A stretch of DNA of 59,586 nucleotides, taken from NCBI RefSeq assembly GCF_004138165.1, contig NZ_RYFF01000020.1, positions 33,982 through 93,567 of the forward strand. Reading direction: 5' to 3'. The notes under the pieces are model-generated. The model saw only the letters and a program-made list of their open reading frames with translations, ran no database searches and was not told the origin of the DNA. Origin of the DNA: Candidatus Chloroploca sp. Khr17 (GTDB lineage Bacteria; Chloroflexota; Chloroflexia; Chloroflexales; Chloroflexaceae). A program made the position numbers and the translations under genes. This document shows positions 35,456 to 53,189 of this stretch, one piece after another; position 1 is the first letter of the stretch; the number at the start of each line of letters is the position of its first letter.

Positions 35456-35600
35456 CGGCCCATTGCAACAACAAACTAGAGATAAGCTAACGGTAGCGTA
35501 ATGAGGACGTGTGCGTGTCTTTCACCATTCAGCAATCTCATTCGTGATGATCTTCTGCTTGTGGCGGTGGCCGACAACCAGAATTTTCTCTAGTCTCATG

Positions 35601-36859
35601 CTATCGCCAATCGGCGATCATAATAGCGCTACCTCTGGAAGGAATGCCTCCTCCGCCAGCAACTCTTCGGCCATTGCCGTCGAGAACAGTAATAGTCACT
35701 TCTTGACCTACTTGCAAACCACATAAACGAGCATTCCCACCAGTATCAAAGCGACCACTTAGACCAATTCCATCCACCACGAAGTACCAACCTGCAGGAG
35801 TAATACCATTAATTTTAACCGAGATGCAACGAGGATCGTCATTGTAATTCACTACTCTGAACCGAAGCCTCTTAGCTTCAGGTTGAGGTGCTGGTACGGG
35901 TGTTGGTGGAGGTCTGAGACGATCTAAGGCTGCTTGCGCAACTGATGTATTTGAAATAGGGAGAGCGACAGCTTTGGCATAGATGCGTCGAGCATCACTA
36001 AGATTACCTTGCCGTTCGAGTTGTTCGCCATATGCAATGTATGCATCATAGAGCAGAGCATTGCTATCAAGAAAATTCGCTTGTATTGCAGCTAACTCCT
36101 CGAACTTAATTGCTGCATCACGCCATTGACGCTTCTTGTTCAATGCTACTCCATCAAGGTAGAGTACTAAGATTTGCTGCTGAGCAAGAGCCAACTGATG
36201 TGACGGATCAACGGCAAGCGCTGCATTGAATTTATCAAGTGCATCAACTGGCTGCTCTCCCCTAATGAGTTGAATTCCCCAATTGTAGTAGGTAGAACTC
36301 AACTTTTCGGTTACATCTAGATAGTTTCTGTCACTCTGGTAAATGGACTGAAAAGCATCGGCTGCATCACGCCATCGCTCTTTGGTGTAAGCATCGACTC
36401 CTTTCCTATAGTTTAGTGCGTTTACCGTTCGGGTATCTGGGGTTGGAGATCGTGCCGCGATAGAGGTTCTGGACGGAGAAGTTCTGGGTGTAGCTGAGGG
36501 CCTTTGTTGCTCTGGTCTAGAGGTCGGTTGAGTGCGCACCGGTGTAGCGGTATCAGCGCTGGCTACTACTACAGCAGCTGGCTCACGATTAGGCGACTGG
36601 CTAACCTCGGGAGGAGGTGTGCCATTACGCCCAATGATTACACCAATCAGCACCCCCACAATGAGCAAGACACCAACCCCGATTGCGATCACAATTGGTG
36701 GAAAAGTTCGTTGTGCTATGCCTCGTGTAGGCGGTGTTGACCGTTGAACCTGCTTTTCAGGAACATCAATCGGCCCCACCTCTTTCTGCTGGAGATACTG
36801 TTGATACTCTTCATCATTAGCATCGATCTCACCGTGTTTGTTAAATGTGGGCATAAACA
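35601..36859 (-). CDS. Island operon gene 14: single-pass membrane protein with TPR-like helical repeats and a C-terminal beta-rich domain.
   Basis: Start at ATG 36859/36853 ('MFMPTF'). TM 'FPPIVIAIGVGVLLIVGVLIGVIIG'. Repeats carry a W-x2-A-x3-[FL] signature ('WRDAADAFQSIY', 'WRDAAIKFEELA'). The layout matches the ectodomains of 47366-49150 and 50021-52735. Confidence 0.7.
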
Positions 36860-36931
36860 TCCTCGCCTGGCAAAAACGTGCGGTTAATTCCACCACAACT
36901 GACTACAGATAAGAATACATAAGCGTACAAA

Positions 36932-37735
36932 TCAACGTGTTAAAGCGCGTTGAACCATTGCCGAAGGGCGCAGAGCTTGATCACTCTCGAGAAACGCCCG
37001 CGCCATCCGCATGGGTTGGTAGCGGCGCGAACCTACCACCACGACACTATCCTCAAGCGGATCCGCTAGATCCCAACGCCCCAGTCCATGACGTACCAGT
37101 ACCTCGCCGATGTAAGCACCAAATGTACGTACATTGGCTGTAAGCAGATCTTCATCCCGTAGGAATGTACGATGTTCATTGTCTACATTGAACTCGAAAC
37201 GTTCCAGGCTCTCGACGGAGTAGTCGAGAGCAAGATCTTCATAGAGTGCCGTACGAAAACGTTCAGCTAGGGTAGCCGGTTCGAGCTCTTCCGCATCCGT
37301 GTCTTCATCATACGTATCACCATTGAAGGCACGGTAGATGAGCTCAATGGTAGCTTGGAGGTGCGCTATCGTCTGAGTCACTGTTGCGGCCGTGAACGTT
37401 GGTAGTGGACGATCACAGATCAAGCAGAGGTCACGATCATGATCGAAAGATAGACATGCATCCACTAAGTCATTGTTCATTTGGCTCATTATCAATGCAA
37501 GGGGACTGATATCTTCCCCTTCCTCAGCCGCATACAAGGGCGTTATGCAAAAACGCACATACTCATCGCCAAGTGGCCCTATCTGGGGATATGCCATAAG
37601 ACGGAATGTGCCGCTCGTAGTAGGCCCAATCGGACACTCGATGTCGAAATAGATAATAGGTTGATCGCTATCAGGATCTTCAACGTCGTAGACAAGCCCT
37701 GCTGTGGTGAAAGCAGTCGTAAAAGATATAGACAC
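36932..37735 (-). CDS. Island operon gene 13: strongly acidic cytoplasmic protein, possibly a chaperone/immunity-like partner of the basic proteins.
   Basis: GTG 37735 is preceded by AGGAG ('taggagtaagcctGTG'), immediately after the stop of the upstream gene. Asp/Glu-rich runs include 'DVEDPDSD' and 'YDEDTDAEELEP'. The N-terminal half looks YbjN/chaperone-like by eye only. Confidence 0.65.
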   Translation of the reverse strand: MSISFTTAFTTAGLVYDVEDPDSDQPIIYFDIECPIGPTTSGTFRLMAYPQIGPLGDEYVRFCITPLYAAEEGEDISPLALIMSQMNNDLVDACLSFDHDRDLCLICDRPLPTFTAATVTQTIAHLQATIELIYRAFNGDTYDEDTDAEELEPATLAERFRTALYEDLALDYSVESLERFEFNVDNEHRTFLRDEDLLTANVRTFGAYIGEVLVRHGLGRWDLADPLEDSVVVVGSRRYQPMRMARAFLESDQALRPSAMVQRALTR

Positions 37736-37748
37736 AGGCTTACTCCTA

Positions 37749-38390
37749 TTACGGTATCTGACGAATTTCCACATTTTTACGCTTCGCGGCTGTAATACGC
37801 TGCTTGATTATCGCATTTTGTTCAGGTGTGGTGTTCTTTGGCTTTGGAACCGCGACAACAAGATTGCTATTCTTGCTGGATAAAGCGTTTAATTCGGGAT
37901 TTTTATTTGATTTAAACTTCTTGTCCTTATAAGATTTGACTTGTGATATCTTTCTGTTGAGATTTTTTTGATCAACACCAGCGATACCCTTTACCGGTCG
38001 ATAATTTTCAATCAATTCAAATTTAAATTTTTTCGGATCAGTACTCCGCTTTAGCACCCTAAGTGTGTCAACACGTTTTCTATTCTCAAGTGCTACTTCA
38101 GAGAAAACATCTCCGCGCTTAATTTGCTTATAGTTTGGCGGTGTTTTTCCCTGCAAAGTAGTTGCAGACTTCGGTTTGCGATTGTGTAATTTTGCATGGT
38201 AATTTGTGGAGATTTTGTTGAATTTATGTCCATTAGCTGTATTTCGCCGCAGTTGTGTTCGCTTAAGCTCATTTGACGAAGAGACATTGCGTGCGGCAGC
38301 TTTCATTTTTGTTTTGGAGATCGGAACGGAGATGCTACTTCTATTTACTTTGGGTGTGCCATGCGTAGATTTGCTGCCAACTTTTTTCAT
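37749..38390 (-). CDS. Island operon gene 12: extremely basic Lys/Asn/Arg-rich protein of unknown function. It is the lowest-GC gene in the window.
   Basis: SD 'aggggtg' before ATG 38390. 213 aa dominated by K/N/R/S/T ('KKFKFELIENYRPVKG', 'KSYKDKKFKSNKNPE'). In the 60-nt line starting at 37861 I count 18 G+C. Confidence 0.7.
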   Translation of the reverse strand: MKKVGSKSTHGTPKVNRSSISVPISKTKMKAAARNVSSSNELKRTQLRRNTANGHKFNKISTNYHAKLHNRKPKSATTLQGKTPPNYKQIKRGDVFSEVALENRKRVDTLRVLKRSTDPKKFKFELIENYRPVKGIAGVDQKNLNRKISQVKSYKDKKFKSNKNPELNALSSKNSNLVVAVPKPKNTTPEQNAIIKQRITAAKRKNVEIRQIP

Positions 38391-38410
38391 TTCACACCCC
38401 TATACATTCA

Positions 38411-38977
38411 TTACTTCTTACGCACAATCTTTGGTCTGCCCTGGAAACGTCCGAGCCGCCGCGCCTGTTCGATATGCTGTTCGTTGCGCTCTTGCATCTG
38501 TGCAGCTTCAAAATCGCGCAGGATCTCGTCGGGTTTCTGTAGTGGTTCGGCATGGGGCATAAACATGCTGCTGAGTGCTGCCAACCCCACGAGACCATCA
38601 ACTGTCTTCACCGCAGTGTAGGCTTTGGCCTGATTGAACTTGCCTTTGAACCAATTTAGTTTAGATATTTGATTCGGTGTGGGGGATTTTGGCTGATTCG
38701 AGCCACGAACAGTAGGGTGCTGCAGACCTCCTCGCACGTTGCGTGTTGGCAACGTACTGCTTGGCTTCGCCTTAACTTGTTTTAGTGGTGGCGTCCGAAC
38801 CTTTGATGTTGGGTGCTTCGCCAGTTTGCGTGTCGCTTGCTGCAACTTGACTGGTGTAACCCGCTGCCGGGCGGTTGTTGAAGCAACTGGTTGTAGAGCA
38901 CGTACTGGCGGCGTAGGCTTTGGGGTATTGGGGTTGCTCACACCTGCCCCACTTTTAGTACTCCGATTAACCTTCAT
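38411..38977 (-). CDS. Island operon gene 11: basic Pro/Thr/Lys/Arg-rich protein of unknown function.
   Basis: ATG 38977-38975 overlaps the TGA 38976-38974 of the upstream ATPase gene (ATGA coupling). The N-terminal ~110 aa are low-complexity and basic ('KPTPPVRALQ...KHPTSKVRTPPLKQVKAKP'). The C-terminus is helical ('DEILRDFEAAQMQERNEQHIEQARRLG'). Confidence 0.65.
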   Translation of the reverse strand: MKVNRSTKSGAGVSNPNTPKPTPPVRALQPVASTTARQRVTPVKLQQATRKLAKHPTSKVRTPPLKQVKAKPSSTLPTRNVRGGLQHPTVRGSNQPKSPTPNQISKLNWFKGKFNQAKAYTAVKTVDGLVGLAALSSMFMPHAEPLQKPDEILRDFEAAQMQERNEQHIEQARRLGRFQGRPKIVRKK

Positions 38978-41787
38978 GCGCCTGCTCCAATCAACATTTG
39001 CAGCACCTGGGCATCTACGGGTAAGCCCGAGTTGCGCATCCAATCAGCAGCCAAACGCAGGTAGACCCGTCGCACTTCGGCGTAGCGCGGGTGCGCACCA
39101 AATCGTGCCGTACAGATCTGCTCAATCTGGGTATGGTCCAGGGCACGATCTCCATAGCCCCCCAGAACATCTTCAATCGTTTCAGGCAAGCTATACCCAT
39201 CTTGTGCAAGCACCCACTTAGCTGCGGCATGGGGATCGTCCGGTAGGATGCTAACGGTCTGCACTTGGTTTGGCATCGGTGGCTGCCAGAGCGCCGCTGG
39301 CGGCATCTGCAACGGGCGGCGGGCCATCATCGCCTTCACGGCCTCATCGGAGTCATCAAAGATCGGGCGATCATCGGGCGTCTGAAAACGATCCAGGTAG
39401 TTGCCAACCTGCACGAAGATCGGGCGACTATCGGGGCCTCGTACAATCACTTGGCCCTGCCCGAGTGAGCGTACGTATTCGCGCTGACGCTCATTCAGGT
39501 TCATCACCTCACAGAAGAGCTTAAAGCTCTCCTGATCTTCGAGCCGATGCATGATTTTGAGGTTCGTATTGCCTAGCGCACCATTGACCAGTTGGGTTGG
39601 GATCTGCTCAGCGATCAAGATCCCTTCCCCAAACCCGCGCACCTCAGCCAAAATATTGGCGAAATCCTCTCCACCACGACTCCGTGCGTCAGCAAGATCT
39701 TCGCTACCCTTGTGTCCAGCCGACATAAGCCGATGGGCTTCTTCGATCAGAGTCATGTGCAGTTGTTTGCCGCGTTGTTCGGGTGGGAGGCGTTTGTAGC
39801 GGCTCTGCAATTCTTGGGTCAGTTGTACCAACAAAAAGGCCATAATCAGGGCGCTATCTTCGGGGGAGCCAACCCTTCCTAATTCCATGACGGTTGGCCG
39901 TGAGAGCACTACACTGAGCGGGGCTGGAGCCGTGGTATTGACAATTGTCCCTGCATTGAGCAGAAGATCACGCATGCGAATTTCGGCTGATTGGCGTACC
40001 CGGTCTTTGGCCTCCTCATCAAAGCCCGCCGTCATCAACTCGCTCACCGCAACGAGCGTCGTGTAGAACGCAGCCAAGGTGGGGGTGCCTACCCCCGGAT
40101 CGCCCCCCTTGCCCTGTTCGAGATTCCAACCTGCATCGGTATAGACCTGACGCAGGGCTGCGCGATAAATCGCTGGCAGAGGATCCCACATCGAGAAGGC
40201 GGCCATAAAACAGCGCATCAACAAACTGAGATGGGTCTTAAGCAAGATCCCCTCTGCCACGTAGAAGGGGTTGAAGCGGAAAGGCGTGGTGGTTTCATCA
40301 CCCAGCGTAAAAATTAGCAGATCGTCGGCCATTTGTGGGTCGGCCATGAGTAGCCGATAGTCCGGTTTGTCAATTGGGTACATCACCAGGAATGGTACCT
40401 GGTGGTCGGCCCAAAGTTGGGCCAGCATGTGCAGGCATGTGTTAGTTTTACCGCTTCCCGTAGCCCCTGCGATGAGACCGTGGCGGTTAAGGTCACGGAT
40501 CGGAATTTGCATATACTGGCCAGTACGCGTGCCACGATGGATGATCTCACCGAGGTTCAAACAGGGCACGTTGGTGAGCAGGCGATCGGTTGGCAAAACG
40601 AATGGCTCGTCGCGTACCTCAAGCCCGGGTAGATAACCACTCTCGGGGGGGATCGGCAGACGGAAGGCCCCCGCCGCTTGGTCGGTACTGACGAGATAGC
40701 GCAAGCGTACTGTCGCCTGATCAACGCGTGTTGGCCCCCAGGCTCCGTACTCAAGAAACGCAAAGTTATAACGTGCAATCGCCAGATCTTGATCATCCTT
40801 AGGGCTTTCGCTGGCCCATTGACGTGGCTCCGGCGTATTGTTTTGAATCAACTCGGAACCCAGCGCTTCCATTACATCATTAGGTGCATAATCCGATCCT
40901 ATCACTTGGATTTTTATGCGGAATAAATGATTTCTTTTGTTGATCAGAGGCATAAAGGTACGGGAAATATCATCAAAGCGTTCACGGCGATACAAATCAA
41001 ACCATGATTTGGACTCAACTTCTGCTGTGAGATTGCGATAACGTGAGAGCAGTAAGTTAATCTGGAGTAGCTCTTCGTGGAAGAGCACTGTTGGTCGCAA
41101 GCAGATGCTTGCGACACAGGTTTGCTCTTGTTGCACCAGCGTTTCTAAGAAGCGGCCAAAAGCAGAAGCATCAAAAACTGGACTAAAGGGATGTGGGAAG
41201 TAGCCAATGGCATCAGTACCTGCGTATGGATCAAAATCCTCAAACTTGCGAATCTCGACCAATTGGTTCATGCCTACCTGTTCAATGGGAATAGGTAACA
41301 TTGAACGCATGAAGTCGTCTTCGCCTAACGGCTCTAATGGGTAGTTGAAAGGATCTTCGAGAGGGTAGTGACTACGAAACTTGCACCAGAGCTGCCAGCA
41401 CAGATTTTTGGCGCGATTGCGGTTGGGATGGAAAGCCTTGCCAAGAAAGACAATCTCAATGGTTGGGCGATGTCCTGTCACTTGACTTGGTCGAGCAATA
41501 AACCGCAGATCGAAGGCGGCACTACCCTCGGCAATCATCCGAGCGTTGATCAAATCATTCAGGAAGCGGATTTGACGCAGCGTAATCAACCGAATACGAC
41601 TCAGTTCACCTCCACTGAGCGTACGCGTGAAATCGCTGGTTAAAAAACTAGGAATGAACGGCACCCGTGCTGCAAAGATAGCGTGCGCCCCCTGCTGGCG
41701 AGTGACTTGCACCCCACTACCCCCCCAACTCTCGGCATAGTGGAACTCATCGGGATTGCTGACGTAGATGAACGGCTCTTGCAACAT
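38974..41787 (-). CDS. Island operon gene 10: HerA/FtsK-superfamily (DUF87-like) P-loop ATPase with a ~430-aa N-terminal domain of unknown function.
   Basis: SD 'aggaagg' lies 8 nt before ATG 41787. Walker A 'GLIAGATGSGKTN' at 40444-40467. Walker B/sensor 'LHMTLIEEAHRL'. 'ILIAEQIPTQL...NTNLKIMHRL' is typical of HerA-like NTPases. Confidence 0.75.
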   Translation of the reverse strand: MLQEPFIYVSNPDEFHYAESWGGSGVQVTRQQGAHAIFAARVPFIPSFLTSDFTRTLSGGELSRIRLITLRQIRFLNDLINARMIAEGSAAFDLRFIARPSQVTGHRPTIEIVFLGKAFHPNRNRAKNLCWQLWCKFRSHYPLEDPFNYPLEPLGEDDFMRSMLPIPIEQVGMNQLVEIRKFEDFDPYAGTDAIGYFPHPFSPVFDASAFGRFLETLVQQEQTCVASICLRPTVLFHEELLQINLLLSRYRNLTAEVESKSWFDLYRRERFDDISRTFMPLINKRNHLFRIKIQVIGSDYAPNDVMEALGSELIQNNTPEPRQWASESPKDDQDLAIARYNFAFLEYGAWGPTRVDQATVRLRYLVSTDQAAGAFRLPIPPESGYLPGLEVRDEPFVLPTDRLLTNVPCLNLGEIIHRGTRTGQYMQIPIRDLNRHGLIAGATGSGKTNTCLHMLAQLWADHQVPFLVMYPIDKPDYRLLMADPQMADDLLIFTLGDETTTPFRFNPFYVAEGILLKTHLSLLMRCFMAAFSMWDPLPAIYRAALRQVYTDAGWNLEQGKGGDPGVGTPTLAAFYTTLVAVSELMTAGFDEEAKDRVRQSAEIRMRDLLLNAGTIVNTTAPAPLSVVLSRPTVMELGRVGSPEDSALIMAFLLVQLTQELQSRYKRLPPEQRGKQLHMTLIEEAHRLMSAGHKGSEDLADARSRGGEDFANILAEVRGFGEGILIAEQIPTQLVNGALGNTNLKIMHRLEDQESFKLFCEVMNLNERQREYVRSLGQGQVIVRGPDSRPIFVQVGNYLDRFQTPDDRPIFDDSDEAVKAMMARRPLQMPPAALWQPPMPNQVQTVSILPDDPHAAAKWVLAQDGYSLPETIEDVLGGYGDRALDHTQIEQICTARFGAHPRYAEVRRVYLRLAADWMRNSGLPVDAQVLQMLIGAGA

Positions 41788-41806
41788 ACGGGTGCCTTCC
41801 TGATCA

Positions 41807-43195
41807 CTAAGCGTAAGCGGTCATAACGGCTTCGACCAGCACAAGTAGATCGCACTGGGGCGTCCAGTTAGCGAGCGGTTCAGGCATGAAGCGCTGCTCT
41901 TGTCCATCGAACTCTACAAACATAGTTGGAGCCTCTTGGGGATACCGAGCCGTACAACTAAAATAGATGCCGAGGGTGTGCCCAAGCTGATCACGCAGGC
42001 TGACACTGACCAGGAAGACGTTCGCATCTTCGTGTAGGGCGGCGTTTAGTCCCTGTGCTAGCATTGCGCCTATCTCGTTGCGCAGGCGTTCGCCAGCACC
42101 TGCGCCGCTGAAGCGTGCGACGGGTGACGGTAAAGCGGGAACAGTCACACCATACATCCCTCCGAGAGTAGCTGTAGGTGGGGCTACGGCCTGTCCGGTG
42201 AGCGCCCCAAGCAACACCTGTTGAAGGTCATTGCTACCTGCCGCCGATGTCCCCATCGGCAGCATCCCCGCCTTCGCCATCTCGGTCAGGGCCAGTAAGC
42301 GTTGTCCATCTGTTTGCGCTTTATCACCAAAGACACGCGTGTACATGTCTGGATTGGTCAGCAAGAGATATTGCGGTGTCAATTCAATCATGCGCGAGAT
42401 ATTCATCTGTGTGAGCGCCTGTGCCATCGCAATCTCGGCCTGCGAGTTCGCCTGGATCTTCGCGACCTCGGCATCAGTTTGCGCCTCGCGGGTACGCATA
42501 TAAACGTCACGTAATTTCTTGTCCAGTTCTTCAGCACCCGCAATACGCGTGATCTGGACGTTCGAGACTCGTATTCCCAAGTTGTCTTCAATGCCGCGTT
42601 GCTGCAATTGCTGTGCAACCATGTAACCTGCATGACCGCCCGCCTGGAAATCCTGGTATTTAGCAATTGATGCAGTGATCGAACGAATTGATTCCATCAC
42701 CGTATCATAGAGCCTCGTGAGCGGCTGTTCGACGACAAGCGCAACGTGTTCAGGATGAATTATCTGATAACTGACTGCAACATCGAGATCAACTGGCAAT
42801 GCAATCTTCTCACCCTGGGGCGGCTGATAGAAAATCGTAAACTCCTTCGTCGTTGTTATATCCAGCGTGCGCTCACGCGTATTGACCACGTAGAGATCAA
42901 TGCGATTCATCACGGGAAACGAGAGCGCGTGATAACTCCCTTCTTGCAGCACTTCGAGCACTCTGCCATCCCCGGTCACAACGACGGTAGTGCCAGCCAT
43001 AACCCGAAAGATACGAAAGATACTGGTGAAGACATTGTTATGAACACGTACTGGACCAAAGACAAGGGGTGAATTACTTAGATCAGCAAACGGTTCACGC
43101 AGGAAGTCATCAAGCGAGCCCTGTCTGCTCGCTGCTTCCTTATCGTTAACGTGACGACGGTTTAGGGGCATGGTCTGGTCACGGTTAGTTCCCAT
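41807..43195 (-). CDS. Island operon gene 9: SPFH/Band-7 (flotillin/prohibitin-like) domain fused to a C-terminal UEV/RWD-like (non-catalytic E2-fold) domain.
   Basis: ATG 43195 follows 'ggaaggag'. The SPFH-like core runs from 'VVVTGDGRVLEVLQEGSYHA...' through 'VDLDVAVSYQIIHPEHVALVV' and 'GIRVSNVQITRI' to a coiled-coil 'AQTDAEVAKIQANSQAEIAMAQA'. C-terminus 'LGIYFSCTARYPQEAPTMFVEF...NWTPQCDLLVLVEAV'. Confidence 0.7.
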   Translation of the reverse strand: MGTNRDQTMPLNRRHVNDKEAASRQGSLDDFLREPFADLSNSPLVFGPVRVHNNVFTSIFRIFRVMAGTTVVVTGDGRVLEVLQEGSYHALSFPVMNRIDLYVVNTRERTLDITTTKEFTIFYQPPQGEKIALPVDLDVAVSYQIIHPEHVALVVEQPLTRLYDTVMESIRSITASIAKYQDFQAGGHAGYMVAQQLQQRGIEDNLGIRVSNVQITRIAGAEELDKKLRDVYMRTREAQTDAEVAKIQANSQAEIAMAQALTQMNISRMIELTPQYLLLTNPDMYTRVFGDKAQTDGQRLLALTEMAKAGMLPMGTSAAGSNDLQQVLLGALTGQAVAPPTATLGGMYGVTVPALPSPVARFSGAGAGERLRNEIGAMLAQGLNAALHEDANVFLVSVSLRDQLGHTLGIYFSCTARYPQEAPTMFVEFDGQEQRFMPEPLANWTPQCDLLVLVEAVMTAYA

Positions 43196-43229
43196 ACGAG
43201 CCAACTCCTTCCTGAGGCGCACAAGGTTG

Positions 43230-44453: not shown

Positions 44454-44464
44454 CGGCAGACTCC

Positions 44465-45865: not shown

Positions 45866-45866
45866 G

Positions 45867-46322: not shown

Positions 46323-46387
46323 CGTAACTACCCTTATTCGTTGCTGCTTAACAGTGCTTTAGATGTCTATGTCCACAAGTGGATCGT

Positions 46388-46588
46388 TTATGCTCGTGTA
46401 AATAGGGCAAACCAGCGCTGCGGTTTAAGCACTGTCTTGCTCTGTGGATCGGTCTGCGCGACCTTGGGATCTTCTGGGACGTGCATCTTGCCATCCGGAC
46501 TGACGACAACTTCCTGTGCGGTGGCAAGACGCTTCTTAAGTTCTTCCAGGCTGGATTGTGGGCTACGAGGGGGTTGTGGCGTGCTCAT
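46388..46588 (-). CDS. Island operon gene 5: 66-aa hypothetical protein, probably disordered, occupying the position where a Ubl gene would be expected.
   Basis: ATG 46588 is preceded by a strong SD ('caggaggtacaccaccATG'). Sequence: MSTPQPPRSPQSSLEELKKRLATAQEVVVSPDGKMHVPEDPKVAQTDPQSKTVLKPQRWFALFTRA. There is no C-terminal Gly and no obvious beta-grasp pattern. Confidence 0.55.
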   Translation of the reverse strand: MSTPQPPRSPQSSLEELKKRLATAQEVVVSPDGKMHVPEDPKVAQTDPQSKTVLKPQRWFALFTRA

Positions 46589-46640
46589 GGTGGTGTACCT
46601 CCTGGGATTTGCTGACACGACTGGTATACGTACAAGGGAA

Positions 46641-47357
46641 TTAGATAATACGTTCGGTATATTGTGCCCAAACCGACTGTTGCGTCGGTGGCTGGTTCGT
46701 GACTTGAGCATAAGAAATGAGGCCCAAAAGGTTGTTGACCACTGCCAGCAGTGAACTATTGCCATTCCAACTGCGCAGAACAGACGAATCAAGTGCGAGG
46801 TGATGTTCGGCTAGTTCACCACAGGCATCAAACCCGAGCATGGTGGCAATGAGCTGCGGTGCGATAATTGGATAGTCATCCGTACAAATGAGATGGATCG
46901 AGACATTCTCCCCATCACTCCGTGCCACCCGGATCTGAACACAGTACTCTTCGACATCCGGGCGCCCGGCGAGGCTCACCGCCTCGTAACCATTACTGCG
47001 TAACTTCGCTACTTCTTGCGTCAAACGTTGCACCACATTTATTGGGGTAACATCAATCACTTGGCGACTTGCAACTGGGGTTCCGGCTGGTGTAAAACCA
47101 CCCGCGCCGGAACTCCAGGTTGGTACCTGCGATGAAAGCGTCGAAGTGTCTTCATGGATTGGCATTGGAGGCGGGCGCATGGTGGGACTAGCCGGTGGGA
47201 GAATGAACGCTTTACCCTGTTTTGATGTTACTTCTGATTGGCTCGTTGTGGCGCGTCGCCCACTCCCGCCTCGTTGGAGTACGAAGACAACGAGGATCAG
47301 GACGACGAGAACGAGGACGCCCCCACCAGCAATGATCAGCAGAATTGATGTATCCAA
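46641..47357 (-). CDS. Island operon gene 4: N-terminal TM anchor, Pro-rich linker and UEV/RWD-like domain.
   Basis: TTG start at 47357 follows GGAGG, which overlaps the upstream TAG ('TAGGAGGcgtcTTG'). TM 'ILLIIAGGGVLVLVVLILVVFVL'. 'VSIHLICTDDYPIIAPQLIATM...SWNGNSSLLAVVNNLL'. Confidence 0.7.
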   Translation of the reverse strand: MDTSILLIIAGGGVLVLVVLILVVFVLQRGGSGRRATTSQSEVTSKQGKAFILPPASPTMRPPPMPIHEDTSTLSSQVPTWSSGAGGFTPAGTPVASRQVIDVTPINVVQRLTQEVAKLRSNGYEAVSLAGRPDVEEYCVQIRVARSDGENVSIHLICTDDYPIIAPQLIATMLGFDACGELAEHHLALDSSVLRSWNGNSSLLAVVNNLLGLISYAQVTNQPPTQQSVWAQYTERII

Positions 47358-47365
47358 GACGCCTC

Positions 47366-49150
47366 CTAGCGGGGTATGATGCGTACCAGATAAGTCGCAC
47401 TGGTACTCAGATCCAGGTTCGCTTCGCCTACCATCGGCAATTCCGCCAGGCTCAGCAAGTAACGTCCACTGGGTAGGGCCGCACTCGCGACACCTGTCTG
47501 ATCAGTCACGATCTGGCGATTGCCGCTCGATCCCACAAGGTTGAGTACCAGATTAGAGGTAGGTGCAATAATCAGCAGATTGACCGGATCGCCATTGATC
47601 TGCGTTGCGAGACGACGATCCGTAAGCAAACGCGTCCATTCAGATGCATCGAGTCGGGTTGTAATGATTTGATAGGCACTCGTGCTTGCAAGCAAAGCTT
47701 CGGCTTCGCGCTTGAGTTGGCGCGCACTTTCCCCACGATCCTCTGCAACCTGAGCAAGGCTAAGTGCGGCGTTGGCCTGAGCGAGCGCGTCGGTGCCAAC
47801 TGTCCCGCCGCGTTCGAGCAAGGCTAGACCGTAACCGACATAAGAATCGTAGAGCCACTGCTCGACGGTGCGTACCGCAGGGTCGCTTGTGTTAGGCCTT
47901 AATTGCACGGCCTGTTCAAGTTCGCTGATCAGGGCGGGCCATGTAGCGACACTTGCATCGCGGAATTGTGTCGCCCGTGCAATCCACTTCAAACGATCAG
48001 CTAGTCCTTCAAGATCTTGCTCCAGAGTTGCAGCAAGTACATAATGCTCGTGAGACTCAATGACATCCGTGGCAAAGAGGAGGTCACCCCATGCCAGCTG
48101 GGCTTGTGCCAAGCGGGTCTTGACGCCTATCGCTGCTTCAGGACTCTGCGCTTCAGGGTGGAGAACATGGATCTGTTCAAGCAGGGCTACTACTTGTGCC
48201 CAACTTGCCGTGGTATTCACTGCCCATAGTTGCTCGGCCTCAGTCCAGAGCGTCTTCGTCCGGGCTTCGATAACAGCAACTAGTCCAGCCTGAGCATCAG
48301 AGGAGGCTGGATCAAGCGCGAGAGCCTGGCGAAACATGGCTTCCGCCTGATCAAGTTGGTTCGCTTCGAGGAGTGCGGACGCATAACGCTCATAGGCGGT
48401 GATGAGCGGGATTGGATTGGCAACCAGGCTACCGCAACTACCACCCACCCCGCTCTGACCACGGTTGTGCATTGCTTCGAGGGTATGGGTTACTTGCGCG
48501 AGGGATTCGCGATCACCGACTGCATAGGCTTGAGCCACGAACTGCTGCTCGGAAGCGCACGGATCGTAGAGCAAGGTATAGTAGAGTAGCAACCCCCCGG
48601 CAATGAGCAGGGTGACACCTCCACCTACCACGGCTAAGATCTTCCCTGTGGCGGAACGACGCGTTGGGGTAGGAAGGGGACGTTCTTCACGAGGTGGCAA
48701 CTCCTTAGGGAATGGCACATCAAGTGGTGGCATGGGGGCCACCGGTTCAGCAATGCGTGCAAGCCGTAGATTGGAACTCTGTACGCTGTCCTGGACTTCC
48801 AGAACGATTTCGTAGAGCATCTGGCGACTCGACCAACTGAGACGGGTTTTTGACTCGACATCAATCGGGAGTTCTTGTAACTCGCCGTAGCTTGTTGTGC
48901 CGGGTGTGGTCACGGTGACCACAAGATTGGGCGCCGTAGCTGGAAAATTTGCATCAAGCTGGAAGTAGAGATGCACCGGCTGTGGCCCTTCGTGCGTGTC
49001 ACGAACCAACTCTACTGTTAAGTAGTAGCGCTGAGCACTCGCGTCCTGCTGGAGGTCGCAAGCATAGCCCATATCACGGATGGCCTTGACCTCTTGACCA
49101 ATGCGCTCAGCGTGACTTTGGTCAGCGGCCATGGGGGGGAGGGATGACAT
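47366..49150 (-). CDS. Island operon gene 3: UEV/RWD-like domain, TM, helical (TPR-like) repeats and a C-terminal CarboxypepD_reg-like beta-sandwich.
   Basis: 'PVHLYFQLDANFPATAPNLVVTV...SWSSRQMLYEIVLEV'. TM 'ILAVVGGGVTLLIAGGLLLYYTLLY'. Repeats 'SWAQVVALLEQIHVLHP' and 'TWPALISELEQAVQLRP'. C-terminus 'DQTGVASAALPSGRYLLSL'. Confidence 0.75.
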   Translation of the reverse strand: MSSLPPMAADQSHAERIGQEVKAIRDMGYACDLQQDASAQRYYLTVELVRDTHEGPQPVHLYFQLDANFPATAPNLVVTVTTPGTTSYGELQELPIDVESKTRLSWSSRQMLYEIVLEVQDSVQSSNLRLARIAEPVAPMPPLDVPFPKELPPREERPLPTPTRRSATGKILAVVGGGVTLLIAGGLLLYYTLLYDPCASEQQFVAQAYAVGDRESLAQVTHTLEAMHNRGQSGVGGSCGSLVANPIPLITAYERYASALLEANQLDQAEAMFRQALALDPASSDAQAGLVAVIEARTKTLWTEAEQLWAVNTTASWAQVVALLEQIHVLHPEAQSPEAAIGVKTRLAQAQLAWGDLLFATDVIESHEHYVLAATLEQDLEGLADRLKWIARATQFRDASVATWPALISELEQAVQLRPNTSDPAVRTVEQWLYDSYVGYGLALLERGGTVGTDALAQANAALSLAQVAEDRGESARQLKREAEALLASTSAYQIITTRLDASEWTRLLTDRRLATQINGDPVNLLIIAPTSNLVLNLVGSSGNRQIVTDQTGVASAALPSGRYLLSLAELPMVGEANLDLSTSATYLVRIIPR

Positions 49151-49207
49151 AGCAACTACTCTCTTGTAAGCGACGCGAATGCCCAGCGTTGACGAGCCTT
49201 ACGAAAC

Positions 49208-50017
49208 TCAGATCCGGCCATAGAGATCAGTAACAATCGTTGCCAGACGACACGAACCGTCCCAGGGGAAGAAGATTCCGGAACCAATATTGAGCGAGGT
49301 GCCATGGCGCTCGACAACCACGGAAGGTGGTTGCTGAGGGTAAGTTGGCTCACACACCATATAGATCGTCGTCCCATCCTGTGGTCGGGTAACGGTTACG
49401 CAGCACGTGCCGTCTTGGAGGGTATTGATCTGGACGGTGCCAAATTGGGCCAGTGCTATGCGCTCACCAGCGATACGCTCGGCGAGATCCAAACTAGGAC
49501 GAGGTGTGGCTCCCCCTACCGTCTGGTGCGGGCTAGGTGGTGGATCAGGTGGTAGTAATGGCCCCGAACTACGTAGCCCAGCAGTAGGGGAGGCGTTCGT
49601 TCTAGCTATGAGTCCGCTCGTCCGGAGATTGCCGTCCGACCTAGAGGCTATAGTAGGCCCGCGGCCCATTGAACTGCCAAGCACGAGGCCAAGCAGTAGG
49701 CCGGGAGCTGTCCCAAGCAGCATTGCCACACTGTACATACGCAAACTCCCAAGGGCTAGTCCTAGATTATCGCTCAGCAGCATATTTAGGACACCACAAA
49801 GCAGCACAAAGACGAGCGCACTAGCTGCGGGGCCAACGAAGATCGCCCAGTGGTAACCTTGTGCGACACGCCCGCGTAAGAGTAGACCTCCACCCAGGCC
49901 CCCGATGATCAGCCCGATCATTGCCAGAGCTAGAACCACCAGCGGGTTCGTGCTGATCAATAGGCCCATGCCCAGGAAGAAGAGACAACTGACGATGATA
50001 ACCATTGCTGCAAGCAT
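49208..50017 (-). CDS. Island operon gene 2: 4-TM Gly-zipper membrane domain, Pro-rich linker and UEV/RWD-like domain.
   Basis: ATG 50017 lies 3 nt after the upstream TAA, with GGAGGA inside the last codons of the upstream gene. TM segments include 'GLIIGGLGGGLLL'. 'TTIYMVCEPTYPQQPPSVVVER...PWDGSCRLATIVTDLY'. Confidence 0.75.
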   Translation of the reverse strand: MLAAMVIIVSCLFFLGMGLLISTNPLVVLALAMIGLIIGGLGGGLLLRGRVAQGYHWAIFVGPAASALVFVLLCGVLNMLLSDNLGLALGSLRMYSVAMLLGTAPGLLLGLVLGSSMGRGPTIASRSDGNLRTSGLIARTNASPTAGLRSSGPLLPPDPPPSPHQTVGGATPRPSLDLAERIAGERIALAQFGTVQINTLQDGTCCVTVTRPQDGTTIYMVCEPTYPQQPPSVVVERHGTSLNIGSGIFFPWDGSCRLATIVTDLYGRI

Positions 50018-50020
50018 GGG

Positions 50021-52735
50021 TTATTCCTCCAGGCTAACAGTAATTTTGTAGTATTTCGATTTCTCGAAGCTAAACTCAATTGCTGTTGATCGAATTTTTG
50101 TTTCACCACCTACTGATTCCACTGTCAGTCTATTGCGGCCATCAATATTCATAAACTTAAAGCTTACACGAATTTCAGAATCTCCTCCTCTTAAAATTGC
50201 ATCACTAGGCCCTACGAGAAGTACATTAACATTTGGAGGCGGCGTTCCACCATTGGCTTCGGTCATCTCATTCTCTGAAATTTCACTAATTGCGATTCTA
50301 TATAGGGGCCATGTAGCTTCCTCAGCCGTTTGGGTTTGGGTTTGGGCTTGCGCCAGAGCCTCCGCTTGTGCGGTAGCAGCAACAGCAGAGGCTGTGGCTT
50401 CAGCATTAGCGGTGGCACTAGCAGCAGCAGCAGCAGCAGCAGTAGCGCTGGCCTGGGCCACAGCCGTGGTCGTTTGCGCCTGTGCGGTTGCGGCGGGGTT
50501 AGGTGTGGGGCGGGGTGTAGAGACATCAGCAGCCAAGGCACGATTAGCACTTTCCTTTAGCTTGGCAACTGTCTCTGCTGTCTCTGCTGTCTCTGCTGAG
50601 CTCGGCCTGACGGCTTCACTACCAAAGTCGTCGAGTTGCTCCAGCAAGCTTAATGCGTCTAAGACCGCACGCCAATCAGTACGATTGAGCGCCTCTTCAA
50701 CTTCAGACCATAACTCATCGGCCTGCGTCTGGGTAGTATTGGCATCATCAATGGACTGATCTAATGCATCATCACCACGCTCATTCGTACGCAAAAAATC
50801 TGCATTTACCCTGGCTTCATTGATCTGAGCCTGTGCATCGTCAAGCTTCCCATCCCGCCAGAGAGCACGGGCATATTTTAGGCGGGTCTCAGACTGGATT
50901 TTAGCCACGTCTGATATGCGTGGATCACCTCCTTGAAATGCAACAGGATCCGGTAAAAGGCCAGTAGTTGCTACAATTTCGTCAAGGATCCTCACCGCCT
51001 GTTGCCAATTACCATCGTCTACTGCTTTATCGTAGCTGGCCCACTCGGCCTCTAACCGCTGCACGTCACCAAGAGCATCAACAGCTTGACGGATCTCAGT
51101 ACGTAGTGCGCTGAGTTCCTCCTGTAAGGAGCGCGAGATTTGGCTGTCATTGCCTTCCGGCCAATTAGTAGATAACAGCGTTCGTGCCTCTACCAGTTTC
51201 TGTGCTTCCACGTTTTCAGTATCAATCTTTGTACGCACCTCGGCCATGAGCACTTTCACGAACCAATCGTTAGCTCGTTGCTTCGCTTCGTCATCCATAC
51301 TCAAAGCAGCACGCTGAGCCTGCTTCGCTACCTCGCGTGCGAGGTCGAACTCAGGTGGCTCAGCAGCAAGATAATCGTTGATTAACAGTAGGCGCGCATC
51401 ATGGATCAATTGCGTGATGTCGCGTCCTCGTGGGTCCGTAGTTTCACCTTCTTTAAGTCGTTCCTGTAACTTAGCAATGCGCTCTGAAAGCGAGAGGTTA
51501 GGATTATCTATTTCGATCCACATAGCGATGGCGGTCTGGGTTTGGGTAGCCTGAAGAGCAGCAGTCGCCGTTGCGTCGCTCGCTGTCTGATCCAGAGTTA
51601 AAGTTGCGCTAGGTGTCTGTTCGATCCCAGTCAATGGTTCCTGGCCCTGTGGTTGACCAACCTGCTCACCACTGGACCAGATCTGCCAACCGACAAAGCC
51701 AAATAAACCAAGCGCTACGAGTGATAAGGCCGCAACGAGAACAACAAAGCCTCCATTCTGGCGTTTCCTTGCCGCAGTTCTCGATGGCGGCGAAACCGGG
51801 CTAGGCGTTGATGGATGCACGACAGGAGCAATGGGCAGTGCAGCGGCGACGGGCATCGCACGAAGAACGCCCTCGACTACATCAACCAAGTGTGAATTGC
51901 CGTTATGATAGGTCCACTGGTTAATCACACCATCATCGTTCTGTGGCAACGCAGTGCCAGCCCGTTCAATGGCTACCAGGGCCGGTGGTACTCGTGGGAA
52001 GTCATTCGGGGCCATCAGATAGATCGTGAGATCAGGATGCTGGTTCGTGCGGACTTCAAAGAAGAAATTCGTATCTTGGCTCTTCAGCGTCACCTGATAG
52101 CCCCGCTCACGAAGCAAACGATGCTCTTCGCCAATACGATCATTGATCGGTGGGCTGCTTGCACCATCAGCTCGCTCGCGCTGGATCAGAGGATGCTCAT
52201 CATCAATTTCATGCACACGTGAAGCCTGAATTTCTACAAAAGGCTCACGCCGTTGCGCCATTTGGCGACTCATGTAGTAGTAACGGATGGTAAACTCACC
52301 GCGATCAACCCAGACAATCGGGTTAATGATCTCATTGATTTTATAGGCCGGATCGCGAAAGACGGCATGGGCAGTGGCGACATCACCCGCACTAAATGTC
52401 TGGTAACGTGCAGGATGTTTATGCCATGTGCCGATATAATCTGTTTTCGGGTAGCGGGCGTGATATTCTTGTAACTTACCGTTAACATAGTCAATGTCGG
52501 GATTAAATTCCACCGGATGGTGATACGCATTTTCACCCGGCCCAGTGGCTGCAATGATCAATAGCTGAACGATCTCTTCCCCATCAAGACGTCGTCCAAC
52601 CAGGATGCCCCCAGTCTCATTTTCCAAACTCGTTGTACTACCTCGCCGGGCTTCCTCTTCAATCAGGCGGCGGGCTGAACGCGTGATATAAATCTTACCA
52701 GGGAGCGGTGACTTCTGGGTACTGAGCTGTGACAT
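50021..52735 (-). CDS. Island operon gene 1: JAB/MPN+ metallopeptidase, UEV/RWD-like domain, TM, ~550-aa helical-repeat region and a C-terminal beta domain.
   Basis: SD 'ggagga' lies 5 nt before ATG 52735. 'ETGGILVG'. Intact JAMM 'HKHPARYQTFSAGD' at 52382-52423. 'LTIYLMAPNDFPRVPPALVAIE' with FPRVPP at 51983-52000. TM 'GGFVVLVAALSLVALGLFGFVGW'. Helical repeats ('NWQQAVRILDEIV', 'DWRAVLDALSLLEQL'), an Ala/Thr/Gln low-complexity stretch, and a beta-rich C-terminus. Confidence 0.8.
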   Translation of the reverse strand: MSQLSTQKSPLPGKIYITRSARRLIEEEARRGSTTSLENETGGILVGRRLDGEEIVQLLIIAATGPGENAYHHPVEFNPDIDYVNGKLQEYHARYPKTDYIGTWHKHPARYQTFSAGDVATAHAVFRDPAYKINEIINPIVWVDRGEFTIRYYYMSRQMAQRREPFVEIQASRVHEIDDEHPLIQRERADGASSPPINDRIGEEHRLLRERGYQVTLKSQDTNFFFEVRTNQHPDLTIYLMAPNDFPRVPPALVAIERAGTALPQNDDGVINQWTYHNGNSHLVDVVEGVLRAMPVAAALPIAPVVHPSTPSPVSPPSRTAARKRQNGGFVVLVAALSLVALGLFGFVGWQIWSSGEQVGQPQGQEPLTGIEQTPSATLTLDQTASDATATAALQATQTQTAIAMWIEIDNPNLSLSERIAKLQERLKEGETTDPRGRDITQLIHDARLLLINDYLAAEPPEFDLAREVAKQAQRAALSMDDEAKQRANDWFVKVLMAEVRTKIDTENVEAQKLVEARTLLSTNWPEGNDSQISRSLQEELSALRTEIRQAVDALGDVQRLEAEWASYDKAVDDGNWQQAVRILDEIVATTGLLPDPVAFQGGDPRISDVAKIQSETRLKYARALWRDGKLDDAQAQINEARVNADFLRTNERGDDALDQSIDDANTTQTQADELWSEVEEALNRTDWRAVLDALSLLEQLDDFGSEAVRPSSAETAETAETVAKLKESANRALAADVSTPRPTPNPAATAQAQTTTAVAQASATAAAAAAASATANAEATASAVAATAQAEALAQAQTQTQTAEEATWPLYRIAISEISENEMTEANGGTPPPNVNVLLVGPSDAILRGGDSEIRVSFKFMNIDGRNRLTVESVGGETKIRSTAIEFSFEKSKYYKITVSLEE

Positions 52736-52900
52736 GCATCCTCCGAGACGACATGGGGTGCGAACGTTAGGACATCACTTTCTGATGAACATAATCTTGA
52801 TTCTTGAATAAGGTTCAGCGTCTTAATCTTGGTGAGCGATCTCTCTCTATAATCTTAGTAACAATCTTTGGAGGTTTGCGCTTGTGTTTTTTGCTCTGGT
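52736..52900 (-). promoter_or_regulatory. AT-rich leader/promoter zone of the island operon (exact elements not resolved).
   Basis: It lies immediately upstream of the first gene and is noticeably AT-rich ('cataatcttgattcttgaataagg', 'tctctctataatcttagtaacaatc'). No convincing -35/-10 pair at canonical spacing was found. Confidence 0.25.
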
Positions 52901-53189
52901 TGATCAAGGTGGTCAGGCTTGAACGCAGGGAAGCAGCGCACGCGGGCATGGTGACCGTGGTCGCTCGGTGAACGAACGAGATTCTTCAGTTCTTGGTTCG
53001 CATATGTACCGCAATTGCAGCTTCGGGCCGTGAACCGCGCGGCTTGTGGGCAGCGAAGGCTACCTGCGTGGCCTGATCCAGCCGACGAAGGTCGGCTTTG
53101 CCATGCGTCGCCGCCGCGTTGACGCCGACGGTCTGGGCGGATGGGTGCGTTCTGCCGGTTGGGGAATTTGCGCGCCTGGCTTTAGTGTC

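Follow-up and report, generated by a model that had tools for sequence, protein, structure and literature searches.

A low-GC accessory segment carrying an operon of E1, E2, and JAB genes at a variable ppc-GNAT locus in Candidatus Chloroploca sp. Khr17

RESULTS

We analyzed a window of 59,586 nucleotides (nt) from the genome of Candidatus Chloroploca sp. Khr17 (Chloroflexota; contig NZ_RYFF01000020.1, positions 33,982 to 93,567); all coordinates given here are positions in this window unless another contig is named. A sequence-only reading of the window had pointed to positions 35456 to 53100 as a low-GC island, compositionally distinct and lacking recognizable mobility genes. This low-GC stretch is the core of a 19- to 21-kb accessory segment in a hypervariable spot between ppc and the gene for a GNAT acetyltransferase. 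In three sister species this spot measures ∼190 bp (Candidatus Chloroploca asiatica), ∼21 kb (Khr17), and ∼70 kb (Candidatus Chloroploca mongolica M-50). In Khr17 it holds an operon whose products include an E1, an E2, two JAB peptidases, an SPFH protein, and a large ATPase. We describe the operon first, and then the composition and the boundaries of the segment.

Genes of the operon

The operon has 14 genes, all on the minus strand between 52735 and 35601, which either overlap or are separated by short gaps; they are numbered here from 52735 downward. The same gene order was found in Oscillochloris trichoides DG-6, whose proteins are 74% (ATPase), 78% (E2), 66% (SPFH), 62% (E1), and 51% (JAB) identical to those of Khr17, in JGI contigs L083, L084, and L088 (ATPase 72%; DDE transposases downstream), and in Logan contig L090 (78%). 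The neighbors of the operon are different in each of O. trichoides, L083/L084/L088, and L090. No orthologue with more than 78% identity was present in a collection of 5.8 billion proteins, which holds other proteins of both sister genomes.

The E1, E2, JAB, SPFH, and ATPase proteins could be assigned firmly. Gene 8 (43230-44453, minus strand) encodes an E1-like adenylating enzyme of the ThiF family (407 amino acids [aa]; Pfam ThiF, E = 5e-35). It matched PADLOC E1-E2 models (E = 6e-41) and is closest to the E1 part of Cap2, a protein of cyclic-oligonucleotide-based antiphage signaling systems (CBASS). Its solved relatives are UBA5, MoeB, MccB, and Cap2, and the GLGSGGS and CxxC...CxxC motifs are present. 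The E2, encoded by gene 6 (45867-46322, minus strand), is a 151-aa UBC-fold protein that matched PADLOC E2 models (E = 2e-24); it has a candidate catalytic cysteine in GHLCLYYPGD, and its orthologues carry PF26395 (E2-CBASS) on record. Gene 7 (44465-45865, minus strand) encodes a 466-aa JAB/JAMM peptidase (Pfam Prok-JAB; PADLOC JAB, E = 2e-15; NCBIfam Cap3-like matches below the cutoff), in which a Pro-rich linker joins the peptidase domain to a conserved domain at the C terminus. The second JAB protein is the 904-aa product of gene 1 (50021-52735, minus strand; Pfam Prok-JAB; PADLOC JAB, E = 8e-18), which was deposited as WP_129673506 (100% identical) and also has an RWD-like domain, a transmembrane helix, and a long helical region. 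The JAMM motif, E...HxH...SxxD, is intact in both JAB proteins.

RWD-like domains occur five times in the operon, on four membrane-anchored proteins and on the SPFH protein. Besides the product of gene 1, they are found at the C terminus of a 269-aa polytopic membrane protein (gene 2, 49208-50017, minus strand; orthologues in O. trichoides, L083, and L088), at the N terminus of a 594-aa protein with a transmembrane helix and TPR repeats (gene 3, 47366-49150, minus strand; weak Pfam RWD and TPR matches), and at the C terminus of a 238-aa protein with an N-terminal transmembrane helix (gene 4, 46641-47357, minus strand; found by self-BLAST), the O. trichoides orthologue of which has a weak RWD match on record. 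The fifth is at the C terminus of the SPFH/Band-7 protein (gene 9, 41807-43195, minus strand; 462 aa; Pfam Band_7, E = 2.5e-8). The domains in the products of genes 2, 3, 4, and 9 are all in alignment A1, a 16-sequence profile of the RWD-like domain that we searched against the PDB. There were 81 matches at E ≤ 10, and nearly all of the 60 listed were UBC-fold proteins (best E = 7e-4): the FANCL URD, E2s, the MMS2 and TSG101 UEVs, and the RWD domains of GCN2 and IMPACT. Invariant in the domain are two prolines (in a YPxxxP motif), two glutamates, a tryptophan, and a leucine; no cysteine is conserved. The statistics are modest, and they give moderate support to a predicted RWD-like (inactive E2-fold) domain.

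The 937-aa product of gene 10 (38974-41787, minus strand) is a P-loop ATPase of the HerA/FtsK/VirB4 clade (Pfam HerA_C, DUF87, and FtsK; PADLOC mad8 and HerA). Profile matches to DUF87 and HerA in the PDB had E = 1e-10. Its AlphaFold model has a mean confidence score (pLDDT) of 86.7, and the best Foldseek match, over the full length, was VirB4 of R388; HerA-NurA, the DndH C-domain, Sir2-HerA, and TrwB followed, with a probability of 1.0 for HerA and Sir2-HerA. The ATPase has ∼270 homologues, mostly in Chloroflexota. None was found in viral DNA in two scans of 2.9 million IMG/VR contigs, and phage and plasmid records gave only distant ATPase-domain matches. A Priestia plasmid bears a full-length homologue of the ATPase, and all the genes around it are annotated as hypothetical.

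Gene 12 (37749-38390, minus strand; GC 0.39) occupies a variable slot and encodes a 213-aa Lys-rich protein that had 3 matches among 1.8 billion representative proteins. A weak match to CDI_toxin_EC869_like (19 bits, below the cutoff) recurs in the 47%-identical L090 orthologue. In O. trichoides and L083 the slot after the ATPase is taken by nonhomologous UPF0102 (PD-(D/E)XK) proteins. The 213-aa protein has no solved relatives, and its single-sequence AlphaFold model (pLDDT 43) was unusable. In L090 (Logan SRR33230291), the closest copy of the operon, whose host has a GC content of 0.70 and a GC content at third codon positions (GC3) of ∼0.93, the effector-slot gene alone has a GC3 of 0.71 (L090, 8752-9483), which suggests that this cassette was recently swapped in.

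The most conserved product of the operon is the 66-aa protein encoded by gene 5 (46388-46588, minus strand), which is 77% to 87% identical to its four orthologues. It is the sole small conserved open reading frame (ORF), and it has no detectable family and no C-terminal glycine. Its conserved core ends in ...KPQRWF[A/S], which is followed by 1 to 5 variable residues. The tail of the Enterobacter cloacae CD-NTase CdnD, which is adenylated by Cap2, ends in ...QKTGRFA. Because the two tails are alike, and because gene 5 lies directly upstream of the E2-JAB-E1 genes, the 66-aa protein is a candidate for the conjugated substrate and may serve as the modifier.

Three further genes complete the operon. 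Gene 11 (38411-38977, minus strand) has a start that overlaps the stop codon of the ATPase gene. Its 188-aa product is rich in Lys and Pro, has a conserved domain at the C terminus, and has orthologues of 134 aa in L083 and 199 aa in L090. Gene 13 (36932-37774, minus strand) encodes a conserved 280-aa protein with 37% to 55% identity to the products of 267-aa genes of O. trichoides, L083, and L090; the orthologues have weak matches to YbjN (18 and 14 bits) and type III secretion chaperone-like families. The last gene, gene 14 (35601-36896, minus strand; likely true start, 36854), encodes a single-pass membrane protein with TPR repeats (Pfam TPR_2 and TPR_14) and orthologues in O. trichoides, L083, and L090.

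Chloroflexus aggregans (CP001337, at ∼1.345 Mb; L089, 8074-13813) has a reduced SPFH-ATPase-YbjN module without E1, E2, or JAB. The products of this module are an SPFH protein, a membrane protein of 179 aa, an ATPase with 59% identity to that of Khr17, a protein of 195 aa, and a YbjN-like protein of 136 aa. The module stands out sharply as a low-GC island (GC3 of 0.30 to 0.39 versus 0.55 to 0.73 in its flanks) and is followed by a PIN-domain pair. In L088 (JGI 3300072959, 1376-9482), the region upstream of the operon encodes two CHAT-protease proteins, one with TPR repeats, and has two further sigma-70-like genes. GC3 is low throughout this conflict-type cluster (0.43 to 0.55). An HTH_17 gene in L088 precedes the operon and overlaps its first gene; we looked for a counterpart in the Khr17 window and found none.

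Base composition

GC content is 0.597 at positions 1 to 35455, 0.525 at 35456 to 53100, and 0.560 from 53101 to the end of the window. GC3 ranged from 0.37 to 0.575 (mean, 0.502) in 12 genes of the island, from 0.61 to 0.74 (mean, 0.667) in 13 genes of the left flank, and from 0.59 to 0.70 (mean, 0.632) in 6 genes of the right flank. The island and flank values did not overlap (Mann-Whitney U = 0, p = 4e-6). GC1 and GC2 were similar in the island and its flanks, and the shift in composition is concentrated at synonymous (third codon) sites. Pooled codon usage gave a chi-square of 746 (41 degrees of freedom) for the island versus the left flank; the control comparisons gave 99 (odd- versus even-numbered genes of the left flank) and 69 (right versus left flank).

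These deviations are large and significant, and they uphold the original description of an island that is compositionally distinct and has neighbors richer in GC. Of the two lines of 60 nt that had been cited in its favor, the one starting at 41041 has 29 G+C, not 30, and the one at 37861 has the ∼30% reported (18 of 60). GC3 and codon usage set the island apart; the dinucleotide signature and total GC on the right-hand side did not, and both are taken up in the Discussion. Total GC has a change point on the left side only, at ∼35.3 to 35.4 kb. The block with the lowest GC is at 35.4 to 38.7 kb (0.47), and GC is ∼0.54 from there rightward.

The GC3 of the operon is host-like in O. trichoides (0.63 to 0.74) and in L090 (0.91 to 0.95) and falls below the flank values in L083 (0.43 to 0.63 versus 0.68 to 0.75). 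Because it is host-like in O. trichoides and L090, the operon is not intrinsically AT-rich; its composition appears to record the length of its stay in each host.

Comparison with sister species

We compared the window by blastn with the ppc and sigma/GNAT loci of M-50 and with the ppc locus of C. asiatica. The ppc gene of Khr17 is 93% identical to that of M-50, and the C. asiatica ppc falls in the same 90% cluster. (The deposited Khr17 ppc protein has 913 aa and the ORF in the window has 915, a start-codon difference.) Five right-flank proteins are identical to those deposited for Khr17 on a 93.6-kb contig. The left flank, 21679-34847, is collinear with both relatives at 90% to 92% DNA identity. 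Because M-50 and C. asiatica are 94.5% to 95% identical to each other in this flank, Khr17 is the outgroup of the three species.

Collinearity ends at 34847. Relative to M-50, the Khr17-specific segment is 34848-53988: homology restarts at 53989, with 86% DNA identity in the sigma/anti-sigma genes and 90% in the GNAT gene. Relative to C. asiatica, the segment extends to 56247, and homology restarts at 56248; only ∼190 bp separate the ppc start from the GNAT gene in that species, and the whole of 34848-56247 (21.4 kb) is missing. The GNAT gene (56248-56735, plus strand; Pfam Acetyltransf_1) forms the right flank that is kept in all three Chloroploca genomes (90% to 92% DNA identity). In M-50, ppc and the sigma factor gene are ∼70 kb apart on one contig (SIJK02000002.1, 71358-141603). 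In the outer 20 kb of this gap that we read, the cargo is unrelated to that of Khr17 and also low in GC (GC3 of 0.50 to 0.63 versus 0.60 to 0.73 in the flanks). The ppc-side breakpoints of Khr17 and M-50 are within ∼15 bp of one another.

Thus, in neither of the two close relatives fetched is the segment at the ppc-GNAT locus, and the claim of an island therefore stands, with wider boundaries. The edges that had been proposed from composition, 35456 and 53100, give way to 34848 on the left and to 53988 (versus M-50) or 56247 (versus C. asiatica) on the right. A small membrane ORF and a hicAB module that had been taken as outer bounds both lie inside the island, as does the sigma/anti-sigma pair relative to C. 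asiatica.

Several observations concern the surroundings of the segment. The M-50 cargo in the outer 20 kb includes several Ser/Thr kinases, one of them fused to Amidase_2, as well as DUF4230 and MamF/MmsF-like proteins; it also includes a DUF87 ATPase, 30% identical to that of the window, followed by Endonuclease_NS and a YezG-like immunity gene. Synteny breaks again right after the GNAT gene. The radical SAM/SPASM enzyme encoded at 57170-58513 (minus strand) is annotated with 447 aa in Khr17 and 384 to 387 aa in the relatives, and its gene is on other contigs in M-50 and C. asiatica. Where Khr17 has the genes at 57170-58513 and 58631-59412, possibly a peptide-modification locus, the relatives carry Transposase_31. 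Logan contig L081 (from SRR14864129) is 100% identical to window positions 53072-59244; one end of it falls at a unique hairpin (53078-53097) on the boundary between the operon and hicA, and the other within an interspersed repeat (59215-59310). We considered its break at 53072 as a junction and rejected it as probably an assembly artifact.

Traces of recombination at the junctions

The left junction contains a truncated and frameshifted pseudogene of Transposase_31 (PF04754, an Rpn/YhgA-like recombination-promoting nuclease) at 34875-35028 (plus strand). Its DNA is 82% to 86% identical to Transposase_31 genes of M-50 and C. asiatica (blastn), and it matches residues ∼27 to 135 of the 327 of Transposase_31 in two frames (tblastn, E = 7e-14). 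An intact copy follows the GNAT gene in M-50 and in C. asiatica. The family reportedly promotes RecA-independent recombination, according to published work on the E. coli Rpn proteins. A second candidate relic at 53722-53898 (E = 0.04) was rejected; it contains a stop codon and overlaps hicB. The statement that the island lacks mobility genes is correct for intact integrases and transposases, tRNAs, and att sites; it had overlooked the pseudogene at 34875-35028.

The ∼190-bp spacer of C. asiatica contains a diverged copy, 145 bp long, of the Transposase_31 5′ end and 36 bp that in M-50 are found just downstream of the anti-sigma gene. Because it contains both of these, we regard the spacer as a deletion scar rather than a virgin site.

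The small membrane ORF (34982-35455, minus strand; 157 aa) has no Pfam match and a host-like GC3 (0.68). It has 47% to 51% identity over 55 to 59 aa to residues 562 to 620 of a 651-aa CHAT protein that adjoins the operon in L088, and it may be what is left of a CHAT-protease gene, from the part that encodes the C-terminal anchor.

The interspersed repeat that had been noticed on both sides of the island is real: it is a ∼100-nt palindromic element with copies at 31867-31963 and 53919-53992. It is not specific to the junctions. Because further copies are present at 30188-30285 and 59215-59310, we regard it as a general intergenic element and not as an island boundary. Two other kinds of short repeats were seen. 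A GC-rich tandem motif, TTTGACGCAAAGGCGCGAAGG, with 8-nt units GCGCAAAG/GCGAAGGC, is intergenic at 30291-30328, 54982-55006, and 56218-56249; between the M-50 anti-sigma and GNAT genes, the TTTGACGCAAAGGCGCGAAGG motif is expanded to ∼200 nt (L086, 10800-11010). Two near-identical perfect palindromes (AGACCTCACAGGTCT...AGACCTGTGAGGTCT) lie at 30092-30124 and 55021-55061, downstream of convergent or terminal genes. The one at 55021-55061 has 20-nt arms that are 100% complementary, and the pair resembles a terminator-like hairpin family.

Regulators and adjacent genes

An extracytoplasmic function (ECF)-type sigma factor (54168-54956, plus strand; Pfam Sigma70_r2 and r4; 80% aa identity to M-50) and a zinc-finger anti-sigma-like protein (55281-56084, plus strand; 88% aa identity to M-50) are encoded next to the operon. 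The pair, in the shared block 53989-56106, is common to Khr17 and M-50 and absent from C. asiatica. Homologues of the two proteins adjoin the operon in O. trichoides (42% and 41% identity) and in L088 (30% and 30%). The pair is thus beside the operon in all three genomes in which both flanks are visible (Khr17, O. trichoides, and L088), in differing arrangements, and this gives moderate support to a link between them.

The region upstream of the operon, 52736-53097, may be its leader and promoter region. It contains the unique hairpin at 53078-53097 and a candidate ECF-type motif, GAAC-N17-CGTT, at ∼52999 (minus strand), and we offer the promoter reading as a weak lead. The more general motif GAAY-N17-CGTT occurs at 54030 (plus strand), 141 nt upstream of the sigma gene, where it is kept in M-50 (L086, ∼8739), and a second copy is the one at 52999 (minus strand), 264 nt upstream of the operon. 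There are 12 occurrences in the window on both strands, and the probability of finding two in these short regions by chance is roughly 1e-3. The motif is absent upstream of the O. trichoides and L088 homologues.

Between this region and the sigma gene is a hicA-hicB toxin-antitoxin pair (53203-53793, plus strand; Pfam HicA_toxin, 30.5 bits, and HicB, 76.6 bits). It is specific to Khr17 at this locus, being absent from the M-50 and C. asiatica records.

DISCUSSION

Relation of the operon to known systems

The enzymes of the operon resemble those of type II CBASS (Cap2/Cap3), which is family 6b of Iyer et al. 2006 (PMC1779556; see also Ledvina et al., bioRxiv 10.1101/2022.03.31.486616). The E1, the E2, and both JABs score best against PADLOC CBASS models. 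In CBASS there is no beta-grasp gene and the substrate is a protein tail. Family searches of the Khr17 operon detected no beta-grasp gene and gave no family for the 66-aa protein, and the ...RWFA/S with which this protein ends is similar to ...GRFA, the tail adenylated by Cap2. In other respects the operon is unlike CBASS. No operon product matched a CD-NTase (Pfam, NCBIfam, and PADLOC), and no product had a cyclic-nucleotide effector domain (SAVED, STING, patatin, etc.). A single match to a PADLOC "Cyclase" model was discarded, as it falls on the fused E2 part of that model. The E1 (407 aa) and E2 (151 aa) are separate proteins with a JAB gene between theirs, whereas Cap2 is a fusion. The two JABs are fused to further domains, and the five RWD-like domains, the SPFH protein, and the VirB4/HerA ATPase are additional. 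Because there is no match to a CD-NTase or to a nucleotide-sensing effector, we conclude that the operon is not CBASS.

The family 6e operons described by Iyer, Burroughs, and Aravind (2006, PMC1779556) combine a polyUbl protein, an inactive E2/RWD-like domain, and a JAB-E1 fusion. As in those operons, inactive RWD-like E2-fold domains occur here beside JAB and E1 genes in a mobile bacterial operon. Unlike them, the Khr17 operon has no poly-ubiquitin-like protein, no JAB-E1 fusion, and no metal-binding "Y" protein; it has a predicted active E2 as well, and its RWD-like domains are multiplied and mostly on membrane-anchored proteins. The Bil and Bub operons likewise bring together an E1, an E2, and a peptidase, which here are encoded by the consecutive E1, JAB, and E2 genes at 43230-46322.

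The ATPase invites comparison with the HerA-effector antiphage systems (Sir2-HerA "Nezha" and HerA-endoDNase); HerA-endoDNase pairs have been described as conflict systems (PMC9503650). Common to both are a hexameric ATPase fold of the HerA/FtsK clade and a variable, possibly nuclease-like gene. Here, however, the ATPase has a 400-residue N-terminal region and a full-length best match to VirB4, the operon is much larger, and it contains no Sir2 or DUF4297 partner. With type IV secretion the VirB4-like ATPase fold is the sole link, since no coupling protein, relaxase, or channel families were found (Pfam and NCBIfam). We did not find this combination of domains in the open-access literature that we searched (families 6a to 6e, CBASS II, Bil, Bub, FtsH-ternary, and HerA pairs), coverage of which was incomplete; what it yielded were general surveys of E1/E2/JAB systems, HerA systems, and polymorphic toxins.

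The locus itself resembles defense or accessory hot spots in that conserved flanks enclose unrelated low-GC, conflict-type cargo, of 0.19, 21, and 70 kb in sister genomes. Unlike such hot spots, it has no integrase or tRNA anchor, and the copies of Transposase_31, one of them decayed, are the sole recombination-associated genes.

Proposed explanation

Taken as a whole, we think it probable that the segment is an accessory island in a variable spot, subject to turnover by recombination, and that it carries a ubiquitin-like conjugation operon as a conflict or stress system. The content of the ppc-GNAT locus most likely turns over by recombination and not by self-mobilization. The turnover would be tied to the decayed Transposase_31 beside ppc and to the intact paralogue beyond the GNAT gene in the relatives, and the synonymous-site composition of the island would not yet have drifted to that of the host. 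The operon would move as a unit among Chloroflexales and would act as a membrane-associated conflict or stress system, one that we infer to be horizontally exchanged. In this scheme the CBASS-type E1 and E2 would conjugate the C terminus of a substrate encoded by the operon, for which the 66-aa protein, after trimming of its tail, is the candidate. The targets would probably involve the proteins with RWD-like domains, which are mostly membrane anchored. The two JAB peptidases would process the substrate and reverse the modification, and the modification would control the VirB4/HerA-type ATPase, scaffolded by the SPFH protein, together with the swappable nuclease-like effector. The operon is probably expressed under the control of the ECF sigma/anti-sigma pair beside it.

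A more specific version of this scheme is tentative. It holds that the operon may represent an undescribed class of bacterial ubiquitination-like systems, one related to type II CBASS but lacking the cyclase, in multicellular Chloroflexales. A stand-alone, non-beta-grasp protein of 62 to 66 aa would be conjugated via its JAB-exposed ...RWF[A/S] end, and this would switch on the SPFH-scaffolded ATPase and the nuclease. The same version supposes, just as tentatively, that the RWD/UEV-like proteins are the targets of conjugation or that the targets are reached through them.

A number of observations weigh against the explanation that we favor. With regard to mobility, the window contains no integrase, phage, or conjugation genes by Pfam, no intact transposase, and no tRNA; there are no att sites, and a search for flanking direct repeats found only short pairs at the level of chance, while CACGAAT-type palindromic repeats are present away from the junctions too. 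Because integrases, tRNAs, att repeats, and phage and conjugation genes are all lacking, the route of transfer was deduced and not seen. The closest copies of the operon are only 72% to 78% identical, about the divergence of ppc at the family level (68% to 70%), and none of them points to a donor or to a recent transfer. With regard to composition, the dinucleotide signature (delta*) of the island, 46, is not distinct from the internal controls (mean, 42; maximum, 59), and total GC shows no sharp upward step at 53.1 kb. With regard to the cargo, the function is predicted throughout, and no defense-system model matches the operon as a whole. Pfam and PADLOC family searches found no beta-grasp ubiquitin-like modifier in the operon. 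The 213-aa protein is a possible restriction-endonuclease-like effector, but its nuclease matches fall below family cutoffs. The 188-aa protein has no family match or detectable relative of known function, and the 280-aa protein has no solved relatives by profile search and no detectable relatives of known function. Finally, the sigma pair, which accompanies the operon elsewhere, persists in M-50, and the spacer of C. asiatica has the look of a deletion scar; the operon may therefore be an older island that was retained only in Khr17.

Alternative explanations

This last possibility is the strongest of the alternatives. The operon and the sigma pair would have entered the ppc-GNAT locus before the three species split; in M-50 other cargo would later have taken the place of the operon, and C. 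asiatica would have lost the whole block. The flank tree, with C. asiatica and M-50 together (94.5% to 95%) and Khr17 outside (90% to 92%), is consistent with such a history. So are the presence of the sigma pair beside the GNAT gene in both Khr17 and M-50 and its company with the operon in both O. trichoides and L088. In the spacer of C. asiatica, moreover, the 36 bp and the Transposase_31 5′ fragment look like the remains of a deletion. The 74% identity of the ATPase to that of O. trichoides, on the scale of family-level ppc divergence, and a delta* signature not distinct from that of the host also fit an early entry. An early entry is harder to reconcile with a GC3 of 0.50 in the island, far from the 0.67 of the host, when the O. 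trichoides copy is host-like, or with the lack of operon remnants in the part of the M-50 region that we read (20 kb). We take it as a serious contender, if somewhat short of an explanation we would back. It would change only the timing, because an old island would still be horizontally derived and dispensable. Gain in the Khr17 lineage and retention of an older island by Khr17 alone are about equally likely, and both describe a dispensable, horizontally derived block.

A second alternative concerns the function of the cargo. The operon could serve toxin export or contact-dependent antagonism and not intracellular defense. A polymorphic nuclease toxin would then be exported by an apparatus made up of the VirB4-like ATPase, its membrane partners, and a chaperone. 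The full-length best structural match of the ATPase is VirB4 of the R388 type IV secretion system, the operon encodes five membrane-anchored proteins, and the next conserved gene has YbjN/CesT-type chaperone-like matches (27 bits in C. aggregans). The effector slot varies, and its M-50 variant is Endonuclease_NS followed by a YezG-like immunity protein. However, we recognized no other secretion components, relaxase, or signal-bearing toxin domains, and in none of Khr17, O. trichoides, L083, and L090 does a variable immunity gene come after the effector. HerA-type ATPases with nucleases or Sir2 are, moreover, established antiphage modules (PMC9503650). On balance we consider export unlikely.

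The two remaining alternatives are very improbable. A decayed prophage or integrative conjugative element might be suspected from the VirB4-like ATPase fold, the adjacent hicAB module, and the transposase relic, but there is no integrase, capsid, terminase, relaxase, or coupling protein by Pfam, there are no relatives in the 2.9 million IMG/VR contigs, phage and plasmid records yielded no more than distant matches to the ATPase domain, and tRNAs and att repeats are missing. A native, vertically inherited locus, with a low GC content that reflects amino acid composition, low expression, or local mutation bias, would suit the Lys-, Pro-, or Ala-rich, low-complexity nature of several products, the host-like dinucleotide signature, and the lack of mobility machinery, but it has hardly any standing when the shift sits at third codon positions with GC1 and GC2 like those of the flanks, the same operon is host-like in GC3 in other hosts, no orthologue exceeds 78% identity among the 5.8 billion proteins, and, in direct contradiction, the segment is absent from two sisters with 90% to 95% identical flanks.

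Implications

The island itself is ordinary, as a dispensable block of distinct composition at a variable locus. Its use is as an example, with clear boundaries, of how cargo turns over between two core genes without classical integrases in a phylum that has been little studied; three sister species show three states, namely a near-empty site with a deletion scar, 21 kb, and 70 kb. The cargo extends the range of bacterial E1-E2-JAB systems, as it combines CBASS-type enzymes without a cyclase with predicted inactive E2-folds, an SPFH protein, and a VirB4/HerA motor. If the 66-aa protein is the conjugated moiety, then the tail-conjugation chemistry of CBASS would have been reused with a dedicated mini-modifier, and the operon would bear on how ubiquitin-like signaling diversified before eukaryotes.

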